Origin: Podarcis bocagei
Taxonomy: Eukaryota
NCBI GenBank assembly: GCA_964188305.1
Contig: OZ076885.1
DNA: 64,000 bases
Reading direction: 5' to 3' (one strand)
The notes under the pieces are model-generated. The model made no database searches, was not told the DNA's origin, and worked only from the letters and a program-made list of their open reading frames with translations. Every line of letters begins with the position of its first letter. Position 1 is the first letter of the stretch. Shown in pieces: positions 14,760-28,768 of this stretch. The position numbers were made by a program, and so were the translations under genes.

Positions 14760-15790
14760 ACCTTGTGAATGATTCTAGACCTCAAATAGTTCTCTATATA
14801 CTGTTTTGCCCATCACACAGAAAATTTCTTCACACCAATCTCTTCCATGGTATCTGGATGATCTACTGATCAGTCCACTCAGCTTCCAACAGGGACTTAA
14901 GAATGTGTACTTTTCCTCATGCCTTCAGTTGCATGACTTAATTAGCAACAAAGAAAAGTGTTTCTGCTTATTATTCTGCAAAGAAAACATCTAGGAGGGA
15001 ACACGGCATGTGGAGAGAGTGTTTCTGTTCCTGGACAGGCAACAAAAGATTCAGTAGCTAATCATCACAGTGCTGATGTATTTTCACACCAGCCTAATGA
15101 GGAGCACCACTATCAGATGTCCTGCCAGGATGTGATTCTGTGGATGAGGTTCTGCAAACAAGCCTCTTCAGAGATGTTATGTTTCCTGTCTCAAGCCTGG
15201 ATAACTCAGCAGCTCCATCTACCAGGAATTCTACTAATGACTGAACCAAGGCCTCATGTAAGAGAGATTTTTCCTCTCAGGCACGTCCCCTAGTTACTAT
15301 GAAGCCTCCTTGAATGAAGGGCTAATTACCAAAACACACAGGTTCAGTGGATGTGGTCAAAGACAAAGTGACTGGAGCTTTGAATCCCATGATTGGTGCT
15401 GTGAGTGTTCAAAGGGTGGAGACAACTCATCAGCAAAGGTATGCATTGCAGAAGTCCAAAGAAACCGGCCAAACTTTGCCCCTGGCACAATATGGGGCAG
15501 GGGCACAAATGCAATAGTGTGCTGTCTCAGTAGGAATAGTTCCTGTGATTTCCCATCAAATCTGTATTTGTAACACAGAGTGGGCAGATATTTCTCTTCA
15601 TTCAGATGTCTCTAGACCTGTGGGCAAATACCCTGGATAATAATTGACCAAGGGAAATGGAATACACTTATTCTCTTATCAGACTCATTCACAGAGTCAA
15701 ACAGAAGATTTAGGAGGGGAGCTTACTCTTATCACCTTGTACTTGCCCATTAGAGGTGCTCGTGCTCTTCAGATCTCTTCGGGTTGTCAT
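14760..15790 (+). mobile_element. Degraded DIRS-type (tyrosine-recombinase) retrotransposon, RT/RNase H region
   Basis: PWYLDDLLI RT motif; DNSSAKVCI (RNase H DN..AK motif); LIHRVKQKI...LITLYLP...SDL resembles the DIRS C-terminal segment; many stops. Confidence 0.6.
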
Positions 15791-16027
15791 CTCTCTCTCT
15801 CTCTCTCTCCAGCAATTTATTGGTAAAAAAACCAAACCAAAACAAAACAAAACCAAAAACAAAACCAATATTAAGACAAGACAAGTCAGTGTCATGTTAG
15901 AAATATTTAGCTTTTAAATAGCCTACGGTTAAAGTATATCATATTCCCCACGTATCCTAGAAATATTTGTATTAAACAATCAAGTATTAAAAGATCAAGT
16001 AGTAGTTAACATGTTTAATTTCTTATT

Positions 16028-16530
16028 TTAATCATCCCATTCGCCATCATTCTCCAAGTCAGATTCTTCGGTATCTGAAAGATGTATTGCCATGTGTCAC
16101 TTCTGAACAACATCCTTAACAGCAGCAACTATTTCTTCATCAATGGGAGGTGTTGGATTCTGAGCCCCTGGTTTCAATTGTTTCCCTTTTCTGAACCGAC
16201 TCATTAGAACATCTTCGGTGTCCTTTTCAACTGCACATCCTTCAGATTTTGGTTCAAATTGTGTTTGCCTTTGTCTCTTTCAATACTGCTTCTGCGCCCC
16301 CACATTTCTCAATTACTTCAAAAATCTTTAATTTTCTCCTGTCCTTCAGGTGGTCCTGTGTTAAGCCAGCCTTAGCAAATATCTTAGCAAAGAACTTCAG
16401 GATCTAAGCTGGTAGCAAAGCCAGTTTGGGACCTCATCCAATGTGACAGATATGTTTGAAGTTTCTGGAGTTCCCAATATATTATTTGCCTAGCTTATGT
16501 CTTCTGGATTTTCATTTCCAGTTTCTTATC
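16028..16530 (-). pseudogene. Captured WASP/N-WASP-derived basic-CRIB/GBD-WH2-WH2-C-A module (disabled)
   Basis: Manual translation: KSRRHKLGK*YIGNSRNFKHICHIG*GP/TGFATSLDPEVL/KIFAKAGLTQDHLKDRRKLKIFEVIEKCGGAEAVLKET; LNQNLKDVQLKR; EDVLMSRFRKGKQLKP...EEIVAAVKDVVQK*HMAIHLSDTEESDLENDGEWDD*. Confidence 0.88.
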
Positions 16531-16699
16531 TCAAGCGATGCTTGAGAAGCACAACATGAAGGAGATGAGACCCTACAGTTTGGTGATCTTGTACTTGGAT
16601 GAGGATAAGATAATGGACAAGATGCCTCAGCGGCAGGAGCAATAACAACAACACTTCTAAACAACGTCATTTTCTCACAACTCAGGCTGCATTCTGTCC

Positions 16700-17390
16700 C
16701 ACAACTTTTTAAGGTTGTCAACTCAGTAACCATTATGTCCCTTGATTACTATGATATGCCCTCCCAAGACCAAGACCTCAGCTGGGGCTACTGTATCTGA
16801 ACATCAACAACTTTGCTTGTCTTCTCTTTCATAATACCGTATCTTTTTAAAGTCTTGAACTGAAAAACTCCAAGCAGTCTCCTGGACCTTTAAACGATTT
16901 TGTACTCTCAGATCTTATTTGGAATTCTTTGTCTATATCCATCCACAACACATTTTGTTGTACGCCCAGCCAGATTGCTAATTCTTGAGTCAACTTTTGG
17001 TCAATTCTTTCTTCTTGTGCCTCTGGGAGACCTTTGAAGCGTAAAATCATCTCTCTCTGGTGCATCTCCAGCAGAGCTATCTGGTCCAAAGTAGTTTCAT
17101 ATAATGTCACTAGATCCTTTATTTCTTCATTAGTTGTTTCTTGATTTTTCCTCGGCCCTTTATTTTCATTCACTAATTTCTTAGAAGTGTCTTCCTGCTT
17201 GTTGATTCTGCTCTTGAGGTCCTGGACTGATTTATATGTGTGTTTATGTTTGATTGTTAGATCTTTTATTTGTTCAGAAAGTTCTTTTATTAATTTAGCA
17301 TTCTGCTCATTTTTGCTATCCATTGCCATTTAAGTTTTTGTCCATTTTTGCTATCATCTCTTTTATATCAAGCTTAAATATTTGAATCCT
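16700..17390 (-). pseudogene. L1 ORF1p (coiled coil, RRM, CTD), disabled
   Basis: ORF 16847-17329 has a heptad-rich N-terminus, then LEMHQREMILRFKGLPE (L1 LE.R.RR.NLRI.GLPE motif) and PGDCLEFFSSRL*KDTVL; a CTD-like RSWSWEGIS follows after a frameshift. Confidence 0.85.
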
Positions 17391-19313: not shown

Positions 19314-19544
<231 letters not shown>

Positions 19545-22500: not shown

Positions 22501-24413
22501 TAGCAGTAGTCCATTAAGAATGTGTTCATACCTATTTCCTGGTTTTGAATGTGAGCCATATGTAGTTGAAAAGAGGGGTAGGGGAATCTACTTGCCCTCA
22601 AATATGTGAAATTACAGGATCTATTAGTAGCATAGATATTCTAAAAGTGCTAAAAGATCTTGAATGTGGGCTGCATAAGATATATGGTGTTGGAGAAAAC
22701 TAGAGCAGGCTAAAGCAGGTTTTTTGTGCCTGATGGGACTAATTTTATTTTTTTAATAATAAAATATATTTCTGTTAAAACATTTAAAGTGGTTCACAAG
22801 CAAAATTCCCCAGCAAAAAATGTACAAACAGGAGCTGTTCCTAGCCAACTATTATGGATTTAGGGAAGGATATCCAGAAGGACTGAGGAAAAGCTGTGAG
22901 AAGCATGCAAATGTTGGAGAAAAAATTAGCCTGCTCTCGAACTTGAGAGAAGCGGGGACTTTGGCATGTAGTTGAGGGTGTGGTAAACTCAAGAGCTTTT
23001 ACTGAGGCCATAACTCAGCAACAGGGAGTATGAGGTTCACCACATGGTGTTGGACTCCAACTCTGATCTGTCACAGACAGAATGGTCAACACAGTAAGGG
23101 ATATGGGAAGTTGCAATCCTGAAGGACCACATGTTCCCCTTACCTACTCTACCTGGCTAGCCGTACAAGTGAGTCAGGTTGGGAGAATGCAAGCTACCCC
23201 CTTTTAGGCCATCCAAATAGTATGAACTTATATCAAAACACTGTATACTTCTCCTGTTCCCTGAACTATACATATTTTGTTTTTCACATGCACTTAATTC
23301 TATGATGGTTATTCTTTGAAATTCTGTGGTCTGAAATTTTAGTTTTCTTCTTCCATTCCTTAAAATACAAAAAGTAGTTGTGACTGATACCCTTATTTTA
23401 ATTTGCATTCCAAATTTAAACGTTTTAGACAACTCAGTAATGCATTGTAGATAAGCAGCATGATTTCACATCACTTGGTTTTTATTAGCATTCAGTTGTG
23501 GCACTGGACATCACCAGTATGTTCACTTCATATATCATCTATGATTTGAAAAGCGCATGAAAATGTTTCCCCATTTTCAATATTGCGTGAGTAATGTTCC
23601 CACTGAAAAGTAATGGAGTGAAGTTGTCACTTGTCAGCATAGTTATTAAGGGGGATGACTTTTAGGTCTTGCTCATAATAAAATAAATCTGTCACATGTA
23701 GATTTACTTATCTCACAATAAAGGAGGAGGGTAGGAAGTTCTATTTAAATAAGATTGTGTGTATTTGTCCCACAGCTGTGTGAAAGCAAGGAAGATGATT
23801 CTTACCCCGTGAAATGCTTTAAAATAGACAGTACTTTTGTTTTGTTTTTGTTCTGTTTTTAAATTAACTAAGATAAAGTAGCCGTTTGTTTTTAAAGGAA
23901 AGCTTTATTGTATCTTATCCATTGATCTTTATAGTGAGAGAGGTATGCAGATAAGAATGATTAGCATTTGCCACTTTTATGCTTCTCAAAGCAGCTTGGT
24001 TTTCCAAGCATTGTTGGTTTGACTTTGATGCTATCATTCGAAAGTAGTAAAAGAGGAAATTTAATGAAATTTAATTCCAATCAAGGTAATCCATAAAATT
24101 ACACTGCTGAGTAGTTAATAGCCTTTTAAAATCCCATCAGATGATAATTAAGTATATACACTTGTATAAGGAGTTGCCTATGTAGAAAGGCACACAATTT
24201 CCTGTTAGCTTTTCTTGTGTCTGCATTGAATTCACAGGAGTTGCTGCTGAGCCCTTTAAAAGCTTAAATATTAATATGTAGGTAATATTTTAATTATGTC
24301 TTCTGATCTATCTTCTGGTGTGTTAAAACAACTTTAAATTTCAAATGTGAATATGGGAAAATATGTGAATTGGTGTTATTAATAACAGTGTTAACTTTGC
24401 TTTTACCTTGCAG

Positions 24414-24506
24414 TCTCGGAAAGGGAGCGACCCAGACAAAGAGAAGAAAGGATTGGAGAGCAGAGCAGATAGTATTGGAAGCGGTCGTGCAATCCCAATT
24501 AAACAG
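24414..24506 (+). CDS. AGAP1: AGAP1 internal coding exon (start of PH domain), 93 nt
   Basis: ttgcag| acceptor and |gtatat donor; SRKGSDPDKEKKGLESRADSIGSGRAIPIKQ; the next constitutive PH exon was not found in the window. Confidence 0.97.
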
Positions 24507-25202
24507 GTATATTCTTTTGTGTGTGTGCGTGTGTGTGTATGCACACAGGCCTACGCACACACACGTTTTCCTGTAGTTGGAGACACACCTCAGGTCTTAA
24601 ACACCATGATGCTGGGCCTGTGTGCCAAGATTTGTTTGATGTGCTGTGGTGATGAATGTTGAAGTCACTCACTTGACATCAATTAGGAGAGGTTCCTATG
24701 TGTATTAAAATAGGATCATTAGAATAAGAAGAGGGAAAATGTGACAACAGGCCTAATGAAGTGCAGTCTGCTGGCCTGCATATGGAGCGTGCTTCTAGGC
24801 TGAGCTGGCTTCAAAGCCTGCCTTTGTAGAGAGGGCTTTGATTGGGCCGTTTGCTGCCAGTCGACAAGGGTAAATCAGATCGCTGTACAAGAGCCCCTTG
24901 TGATCACAGAAATAGCCTGATGTGGCCCTCATTTGCTATTGCAGAAAGACATCTGAACACTGTTCCAGGCTGGTTTGCAACAACTAGGCAATTAGTTGCG
25001 ATAATCATAGCTGGTGTGTCAGCTGTGCACTCTTGTTTGTAATTTGCTAATGAAGGAATTGTAACTTCATTTAGACCTTGTTATATAGGAGAACATTTAC
25101 AGTCATAGTATGTGGCCTTAATTAAACTTCCTCGTTACACTACAGGATTTGAAATTGAGGATTTGTTTTGGTTTGTTTGACTGGTGCAGGTTCACTTGAG
25201 TA

Positions 25203-27390: not shown

Positions 27391-28768
27391 CAGTGGTGCC
27401 TCGCAAGACGAAATTAATTCGTTCCGCAAGTCTCTTCGTCTTGCGAGTTTTTCGTCTTGCGATGCACGGTTTCCCATAGGAATGCATTGAAAATCAATTA
27501 ATGCGTTCCTAGGGAAACCGCCTTCAGACCAGGTCCGGGGACAGTCTGTCCCCGGACCTCTTCTGAAGGCTGGGGGGGGGGACAAGGGCTTTTCTTCCCA
27601 CCCCCAGCATTTTAAAAAAAACCCGGGACAGCAGAGGACTTCTCCGCTGTCCAGGCGATCTTAAAATGCTGGCGGGCGGCATTTTAAAATCGCCCCGGAC
27701 AGCGGAGGACTTCTCCGCTGTCCGGGGCGATTTAAAAGCCCCTGGGAAGGCAGGCAGGGGGGACAAAGACTTTCGCACCCTGCCCGCCTTCAGAAGGTGT
27801 TCCCGCCCCCAGCCCCGCTTCGGAACAGCGTTCCGAAGTGGGGCGGCTGGGGCAGGTGTTCCCGCCCCCCCTCCCCGCTTCGGAACAGCGTTCCGAAGTG
27901 GGGCGGCTGGGGCAGCTGTTCCCGCCCCCCCTCCCCGCTTCGGAACAGCGTTCCGAAGTGGGGTGGCTGGGGCAGCTGTTCCCGCCCCCCTCCCCGCTTC
28001 GGAACAGCGTTCCGAAGTGGGGCGGCTGGGGCAGCTGTTCCCGCCCCCCCTCCCCGCTTCGGAACAGCGTTTTAAAATGCTGGGGGTCGGCAGCGAAGCG
28101 TTCGCTGCCGACCCCCAGCATTTTAAAATCTCCCCGGGACAGGGGGAGATTTTAAAATGCTGGGGGTCAGCAGCGAATGCCCGACCCCCAGCATTTTAAA
28201 ATCTCCCCGGGACAGAGAAGTCTCTGCTGTCCCGGGGAGATTTTAAAATGCTGGGGGTCGGCAGCCCCCCAGCATTTTAAAATCTCCCCGGGACATGGGG
28301 AGATTTTAAAATGCTCCCGACTTCTCTGCTGTCCCGGGGAGATTTTAAAATGCTGGGGGTCGGCAGCTAACGCTTCGCTCCCGACCCCCAGCATTTTAAA
28401 ATCTCCCCGGGACAGAGACTTCTCTGCCTTCCCTTGGAGATTTTAAAATGCTGGGGGTCGGCAGCGAACGCTTCGCTCCCGCCCGCCAGCATTTTAAGAT
28501 TGCCCGGGGCAGGCGGGGGGGGGAGGGTAAGGCAGGCGGGGGGAGCAAAGACTTTTGCCCCCCGCCGGCCTTCAGAAGAGGTCCTCTTCTGAAGGCCGGC
28601 TGTGGGCGAAAGTCTTTGCTCCCGACCGCCAGCATTTCCCTATGGGCTTTCGTCTTGCGATGCAAGCCCATAGGGAAATTCGTCTTGCGAAGCGCCTCCA
28701 AAACAGAAAACCCTTTCGTCTTGCGGGTTTTCCGTCTTGCGAGGCATTCGTCTTGCGGGGTACCACTG
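27391..28768. mobile_element. Tigger/pogo-type non-autonomous element with internal tandem and palindromic arrays
   Basis: TA|CAGTGGTGCCTCGCAAGACGAA ... TTCGTCTTGCGGGGTACCACTG|TA; subterminal TTCGTCTTGCG repeats; 60-bp tandem units and hairpins. Confidence 0.92.

Follow-up and report, generated by a model that had tools for sequence, protein, structure and literature searches.

The closest described systems are the two vertebrate WASPs, an engineered switch and a single catalogued lizard protein. In the excerpted text of Kollmar et al. 2012 (PMC3298513), two vertebrate WASPs are counted, WAS and WASL, and a 'WAWH' from Anolis carolinensis is catalogued as an oddity and filed by domain content with amoebozoan WAWH; no other vertebrate member is named in that excerpt. 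An engineered mini-N-WASP, in which the basic region and the CRIB are linked to the VCA, is described in an excerpt of PMC2064658, citing Prehoda et al. 2000.

The window, by which we mean the whole 64,000-nucleotide stretch of Podarcis bocagei DNA that was analysed, contains a dead copy of a gene of this type, whose parent lies on contig C2 of the same genome. The parent protein shares with WASL and WAS a basic region, a CRIB/GBD, WH2, a C helix and an acidic Trp, and differs from both in having neither WH1 nor polyproline, in the GBD tyrosine being mostly absent, and in its separate locus and clade; with respect to WH1, polyproline, the WASL locus and grouping with WASL, it does not qualify as a WASL orthologue. 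Compared by eye, the Anolis protein (AocWAWH) agrees with the parent in N-terminus, GBD, non-proline linker and WH2-like pair. The parent has GBD and VCA and lacks WH1, as WAWH is defined in the excerpt of Kollmar et al. 2012, and, judged by these sequences, it is plainly the Anolis orthologue. The difference lies in its placement here in a vertebrate-wide third WASP lineage that has WH1-bearing members. The domain inventory of the parent protein is also that of the engineered mini-N-WASP as excerpted, but the parent has in addition a 55-residue N-terminal extension and a non-proline linker of about 100 residues, and its switching is predicted only. We consider it very probable that the window feature is a neutrally decayed, dead processed pseudogene of the C2 gene, that its absence of WH1 and polyproline was inherited, and that the parent is a likely third vertebrate WASP paralog and a predicted minimal switch.

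A DNA search of the genome using positions 16000-16560 as query yielded at least five matches, namely the window itself and four exon pieces on C2 (77-93% identity, E values from 6e-40 to 7e-8), values at which the match to C2 is not due to chance. The WASP-like sequence reaches upstream past the span treated in a preliminary description of this DNA (16028-16530), as far as position 16670, where there is an ATG. The copy lacks every one of the parent's six introns, exactly at the GT/GC-AG junctions, of which five were seen joined and one falls inside a later deletion. In the 3' UTR, copy and parent differ by 15 mismatches in 163 aligned bases, and the AATAAA of the copy (15821-15816) is followed by 7 bases and then by (AG)n rather than poly(A), from which this tail would have derived. 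The target-site duplication (16724-16713 and 15793-15782) comprises 12 bases with one mismatch; an equal match was found for 22 of 20000 random 28-mers of the window. The copy resembles processed pseudogenes of vertebrate genes in its missing introns, its 3' UTR with tail, its target-site duplication, its single insertion and its neutral decay, and differs from them in having an (AG)n tail. It is an ordinary dead retrocopy, a processed pseudogene that encodes no functional protein. The AATAAA of the copy faces a changed hexamer in the parent, where an AATAAA occurs about 180 bases further on (C2:55,630,360-55,630,545); the copy thus preserves an older polyadenylation site.

Table 1. Features of the retrocopy and its surroundings in the window.
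Feature	Position	Strand	Evidence or remark
Whole processed pseudogene of the 7-exon WH1-less WASP paralog	15794..16712	-	DNA match to C2 gene
Target-site duplication, 5' copy	16713..16724	-	11/12 letters equal to 3' copy, 8 exact
Target-site duplication, 3' copy	15782..15793	-	Counterpart of 16713..16724
Exon 1 copy: about 40 bases before ATG; ATG at 16670	16640..16709	-	80% identity over 70 nt
Exon 2 copy: N-terminal extension, basic region, first half of CRIB	16456..16639	-	Alignment to parent
Exon 2 copy lesions: stops at 16514 and 16484; CRIB Pro to Ser at 16469	within 16456..16639	-	
Exon 3 copy: second half of CRIB; 1-nt deletion leading to TGA at 16436-16434	16414..16455	-	
Exon 4 copy: helical GBD; net +4 indel 16395-16383; 3-nt deletion near 16328	16266..16413	-	
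Deletion junction: 229 nt absent relative to this genome's parent	16265..16266	-	Alignment to parent
Exon 5 remnant: first WH2-like motif 16257-16222; WH2 motif from 16216	16169..16265	-	
Exon 6 copy: central (C) helix; TGA 16099-16097 where parent has AGA	16075..16168	-	
Exon 7 copy, coding part: acidic tail with Trp, TAA	16028..16074	-	
3' UTR copy: T-rich microsatellite, AATAAA at 15821-15816	15809..16027	-	
(AG)n tail at expected poly(A) position	15794..15808	-	
LINE-ORF1-like decayed frame, 160 codons, not in insertion	16847..17329	-	Outside target-site duplication
Two AGAP-family exons	19323-19440 and ~24410-24510	+	

The preliminary description had read its span as a mini-N-WASP module captured from WASL. 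Six-frame translation bears out its placement of the motifs on the minus strand: GGAEAVLKET lies at 16301-16272, the first WH2-like motif, LNQNLKDVQLKR, at 16257-16222, and the second, EDVLMSR, starts at 16216; the 63 codons up to the TAA at 16030-16028 form one frame with a TGA at 16099-16097, and both CRIB histidines and the terminal Trp are present. What had been taken for a GBD joined directly to WH2-C-A is split: the GBD is read in one frame, the first WH2-like motif in a second and WH2-C-A in a third, and a TGA at 16256-16254 closes the frame of the GBD. The TGA at 16099 was the one lesion listed in the preliminary description, where it was taken as consistent with CGA-to-TGA decay; the parent codon is AGA, which rules out CpG decay, and the span also carries a TGA at 16514, a TAA at 16484, a 1-nt deletion near 16435, which places a TGA inside the CRIB motif and removes the CRIB Trp, and a net +4 indel at 16395-16383. 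By DNA match the source is the C2 paralog and not WASL, and nothing was captured; the 'heavy divergence' of the copy reflects the distance between the parent and WASL, as copy and real parent share 77-93% DNA identity. The EWDD taken for a resemblance to WASP is, like the GBD Phe, an ancestral squamate state retained by the copy. Of the proposed architecture, a conserved basic-CRIB/GBD-WH2-C-A protein without WH1 and polyproline does exist, but it belongs to the C2 parent and not to the window copy; likewise, the absence of WH1 and polyproline is real in the parent, and the shortened linker is not, with about 100 residues between its GBD and last WH2.

The pattern of substitution is that of a sequence decaying without constraint. 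Relative to the parent, the copy has three nonsense codons (16514, 16484 and 16099) and four frameshifting indels. Leaving out codons in gaps or within 3 columns of them, 190 gap-free codons of 300 were compared, and their 62 substitutions fall on codon positions 1/2/3 as 22/18/22 (17/12/18 inside the span of the preliminary description). By a counting method, pairwise omega was 0.53 (Fisher p 0.03, 190 codons), a value that we attribute to the parent's branch and to transition bias; maximum likelihood with transition bias gave 0.59, which mixes the copy and parent branches and is still not different from 1 (p 0.088, 187 codons). Using nine outgroup proteins, 39 amino-acid-changing codons were assigned as 26 to the copy and 10 to the parent, with 3 unresolved, and the neutral expectation for the copy branch, assuming that half of the synonymous changes occurred on the copy, is 26.6. 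Changes on the copy include residues invariant in the outgroup, namely the CRIB Pro, the WH2 Ile and the C-helix Leu and Arg. The protein-level selection once proposed for the copy is contradicted by these counts, and the copy is not an open frame under purifying selection.

The copy was found at the same genomic site in all three other organisms compared (genomic contigs from runs X16, X17 and X18). In X16 and X18, one contig crosses position 16265 with about 244 letters more, which equals the parent's linker in size; X17 has the linker deletion, as in this genome, so that the deletion is present in two of the four organisms overall. A net 28-nt deletion at 16218-16209, between the WH2 motifs, occurs only in this genome, the piece being kept by the three others. 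Gap counts in the three other copies allow no difference at the CRIB frameshift or at the +4 indel, and both are therefore shared, the CRIB frameshift being common to all four organisms. Each of the other copies has an additional frameshift of its own (near 16571, 16572 and 16418), and the TAA at 16484 occurs in this genome alone; 40 of the 123 difference rows were listed, position 16099 not among them. Because the CRIB frameshift is shared and the linker is retained in two of the three other organisms, the copy was full-length and already dead before the 'mini' junction formed. The linker deletion is a late event and not ancestral. An internal splice acceptor of exon 5 was considered as the cause of the deletion and rejected for this copy, since the junction removes the last bases of exon 4 and other organisms' copies have the long form. 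The preliminary description had itself named two outcomes that would tell against it, an even spread of substitutions over codon positions and a deletion private to this copy; on both counts the outcome went against it, as the substitutions are evenly spread and the deletion is not ancestral, and its reading of the window copy fails. The sharing of lesions at 16265, 16324 and 16514 is discordant, one organism having the linker deletion and another the TGA at 16514 together with the 3-nt deletion; lineage sorting or introgression would explain this.

In a tree of 60 rows and 121 columns, the copy is sister to the Podarcis, Lacerta and Zootoca genes (support 95.4/100), and it retains ancestral residues that have changed in those genes, among them the GBD Phe, which is Leu in lacertid parents, and the Asp of EWDD, which there reads EWND. 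Together, the ancestral residues and the sister placement point to an insertion on the lacertid stem. A LINE would likely have reverse-transcribed the spliced parent mRNA; insertion on the lacertid stem lineage would then have been followed by neutral decay and, late, by the linker deletion. The copy is antisense to an AGAP-family gene, presumably AGAP1, and sits 2.6 kb ahead of one of its internal exons; an ArfGap domain is encoded 170 kb downstream on the strand of that gene, and the copy's position is likely intronic. The frame at 16847-17329, which we call LINE ORF1-like on a presumed resemblance, matches no Pfam family above cut-off, and the piece shows 65% identity over 519 bases to a piece on C16; it is old and low-copy. 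Capture by this upstream element was rejected, as the element ends about 100 bases before the 5' target-site copy and no duplication joins its far side to the 3' end. With regard to carriage by a mobile element, the DNA search of the genome gave at least one copy, the one in the window, and no further copies of it. At 27570-28600, the window also has a GC-rich, internally repetitive transposon-like element with many direct and inverted repeats, and similar sequence occurs near the parent locus. In one RNA run of 12.8 million records, 6 reads fell on the window, all below 99% identity, too few to argue either way.

The parent gene has seven exons (C2:55,615,087-55,630,170) that together give an open reading frame 300 codons long; its introns are GT-AG except for one GC-AG. 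The GBD exon matches a Podarcis lilfordi protein annotated 'N-WASP-like' without a difference (8 of 22 candidates passed, all squamates). The true WASL is on C10 and WAS on C17, each with WH1 exons; WH1 (PF00568) was not found in any of eight squamate parent-type proteins, none of the 17 genome WH1 matches is on C2, and tblastn over the 75 kb upstream of the parent revealed no hidden WH1 exon. The parent linker has 103 residues with 9% Pro, against 45% Pro in WASL, and its longest Pro run is 1, against 11 in WASL and 9 in WAS. Upstream of the CRIB/GBD (Pfam PBD, E 8e-14; N-WASP match, E 7e-34), the basic stretch has 6 Lys/Arg in 14 residues. The first WH2-like motif, undetected by Pfam, was aligned by phmmer to the first WH2 of N-WASP, and the second scored 15.9 bits, below the Pfam cut-off of 23.1; frog and WH1-bearing fish members have one WH2 motif. 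The GBD tyrosine, which we take to be Y256 of N-WASP and Y291 of WASP, is absent in 20 of 21 aligned tetrapod members and present in the coelacanth, bichir and sturgeon proteins.

A structure model built from 44 sequences had a mean pLDDT of 59, with about 90 in the GBD and about 79 in the C helix; an earlier model from 8 sequences (mean pLDDT 45) was set aside. The modelled GBD matches 1EJ5, 2K42 and 9R3Y, the fold matches covering the GBD only, and in the ESM Atlas no matches came up beyond the protein's own cluster and WASL. RNA for the parent was queried over one stretch with just one 94-base exon, for which none is listed. Exon 5 contains an internal in-frame splice acceptor (C2:55,621,342), which is used in annotated python, Liasis and Pseudonaja proteins, and intron 5 has a GC donor (C2:55,621,497). 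Annotated snake forms have 43-55 residues between the GBD and the last WH2, and the form that starts exon 5 at the internal acceptor, with a linker of about 43 residues, is the closest natural match to mini-N-WASP. In some annotated Lacerta and Rhineura isoforms the C-helix exon, which follows intron 5, is skipped, so that they terminate out of frame and lack both C and A, and six linker codons of other Podarcis, Lacerta and Zootoca proteins are absent from this genome's parent (C2:55,621,340-55,621,360).

We also examined the distribution of parent-type proteins, which are found in squamates, turtles (13 of 2101 candidates), frogs, caecilians and the axolotl. The best 36 of at least 105 matches, from 8000 candidates scored, all lack a WH1 entry and belong to squamates, turtles, frogs, one caecilian and two further records; birds, crocodilians, mammals and teleosts are not among these best 36, which is weak evidence of absence. 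Frog members have proline-rich linkers (18-26% Pro), and the axolotl third-clade member has 796 residues with repeated proline-rich and WH2 segments. In a tree of 33 chosen rows and 124 columns, a short alignment with long branches and with no shark WAS or WASL row as control, the third clade stands apart from WAS and WASL (support 90.3/97); it takes in the WH1-bearing proteins of coelacanth, bichir and sturgeon together with three from cartilaginous fish, of which one has WH1, and the branching order of WAS, WASL and the third clade has no resolution there. On this tree, the clade is as old as the jawed vertebrates. In the trees, which had no amoebozoan row, the parent lies nested among vertebrate proteins that have WH1; this speaks for an independent loss of WH1. 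Two bird proteins annotated as WAS (P0273 and P0224) group with turtle WAS, although birds are said to have lost WASP in the excerpt of Kollmar et al. 2012 (PMC3298513). Tandem GBDs, two or three of them, were also noted in some WASL-type proteins (P0025-P0027, P0030, P0031 and P0282), possibly as annotation artefacts.

Five introns of the parent are those of WASL in position and phase, which indicates that it arose by DNA duplication. Synteny, checked in this genome, places a Shisa gene 27 kb upstream of the parent with a TREX1-like exonuclease beyond it, and a PFKFB gene 45 kb downstream; we take these neighbours to be SHISA5, TREX1 and PFKFB4. WAS lies 1 Mb from another of the four PFKFB loci, and all seven hyaluronidase loci found are on C10, where two lie within 60 kb of WASL, or on C2, where the nearest is 1.6 Mb from the parent. 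PFKFB1-4 are a 2R quartet of paralogon 5 (Lamb 2021, PMC8040251), and WASL has no row among the ohnolog table rows listed in the excerpt of that paper. From the trees, the intron phases and the synteny we infer that the parent likely belongs to a third line of vertebrate WASPs, an ohnolog of WAS and WASL from the early genome duplications. To judge from the proteins compared, this lineage keeps WH1 in coelacanth, bichir and sturgeon and is without it in amphibians, and in turtles and squamates it is also without polyproline. In the open-licence literature we found no description of a third vertebrate WASP ohnolog, and other papers could hold one; the parent-type gene is little noticed, having been catalogued once, in Anolis.

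By established WASP biochemistry, a protein with this basic stretch, CRIB/GBD, C helix and terminal Trp is predicted to be autoinhibited and to be relieved by Cdc42-GTP and PIP2. The GBD of the parent would bind the protein's own C helix and hold WH2-C-A off, until Cdc42-GTP binds the CRIB and acidic lipid the basic stretch, whereupon WH2-C-A would be freed and could activate Arp2/3. Having no WH1, it would receive no WIP input, and, having no polyproline, little SH3 or profilin input; phosphorylation of the GBD tyrosine would play no part in this scheme. The parent protein is thus likely, by analogy, a natural Cdc42/PIP2-gated mini-WASP, and the whole switch mechanism is a prediction.

Other readings of the copy find little room beside this evidence. 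That a WASL-derived module was captured by a mobile element, held under protein-level selection as a mini-N-WASP and lost only lately could appeal to the still recognisable motifs, to the LINE-ORF1-like remnant 140 bases upstream, to the counting omega, and to the Phe and EWDD of the copy, which are Leu and EWND in lacertid parents. We give it practically no credence, because the DNA matches the C2 paralog alone, because the LINE-like frame lies outside the target-site duplication, so that nothing was captured, and because the WASP-like residues are ancestral squamate states; moreover, invariant residues of the CRIB, WH2 and C helix were changed, and a frameshift found in four of four organisms beside a linker deletion found in two of four means that the copy was dead before it was shortened. 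It is also very improbable, if somewhat less so, that the copy was once a functional retrogene that died before the sampled species split. At its origin it did have the complete coding sequence and some of the 5' UTR, and the branch-wise count of changes has a wide error, but the 26 (up to 29) changes on the copy branch match the neutral expectation and leave no deficit for a long constrained phase. A dead, neutrally decayed processed pseudogene remains the reading we adopt.

With the copy dead, the age of the parent could still be otherwise: it might be a later segmental duplicate of WAS or WASL, of tetrapod or reptile age, drawn to fish and shark proteins by long-branch attraction. The short alignment, the long branches and inner supports of 71/69 and 79/67 are compatible with this, as is synteny evidence that comes from this genome and none from fish or sharks. 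AU tests, however, reject grouping with tetrapod WASL (p 5e-6) and with tetrapod WAS (p 2e-4), the WH1-bearing members stay together when the tetrapod rows are removed (89/84; 21 rows, 244 columns), the short-branched coelacanth protein has the clade's His residues in the GBD and after the C helix, and the parent sits within the paralogous PFKFB/hyaluronidase region; we therefore regard a later duplication as unlikely. We judge similarly unlikely the idea that the parent, its VCA in decay, does not activate Arp2/3 and instead buffers Cdc42 or regulates in a dominant-negative manner. The weak WH2 scores, under the Pfam cut-off, and an acidic tail shorter than that of WASL do speak against a switch and for such a role, as do the annotated isoforms that omit the C exon, whereas 44 aligned proteins show little or no variation in the C helix and terminal Trp and the LK motif of the last WH2 is retained in frogs, turtles and squamates. 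The history that we favour, with moderate confidence, is that of a third WASP ohnolog, kept by jawed vertebrates beside SHISA5 and PFKFB4 (as we name these neighbours), that would have been stripped stepwise: full-length in coelacanth, bichir, sturgeon and probably sharks, it would have lost WH1 and the GBD tyrosine in early tetrapods and polyproline in the turtle-squamate ancestor, leaving reptiles with a natural mini-N-WASP for which Cdc42 and PIP2 would be the only gates and which lizards would express in the germ line, and Xenopus with an unrecognised WH1-less WASP.

The retrocopy itself matters only as proof that a lacertid ancestor had spliced parent mRNA in its germ line or early embryo. 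If the proposed history is true, a third lineage with graded loss of WH1, of the regulatory tyrosine and of polyproline would provide a natural series (coelacanth, Xenopus, turtle or lizard, snake). Such a series could be used to test which WASP inputs are needed in vivo, including how stability and localisation are achieved without WIP. Xenopus is a classic extract system for N-WASP, and a WH1-less Xenopus WASP could bear on the results obtained in these extracts.
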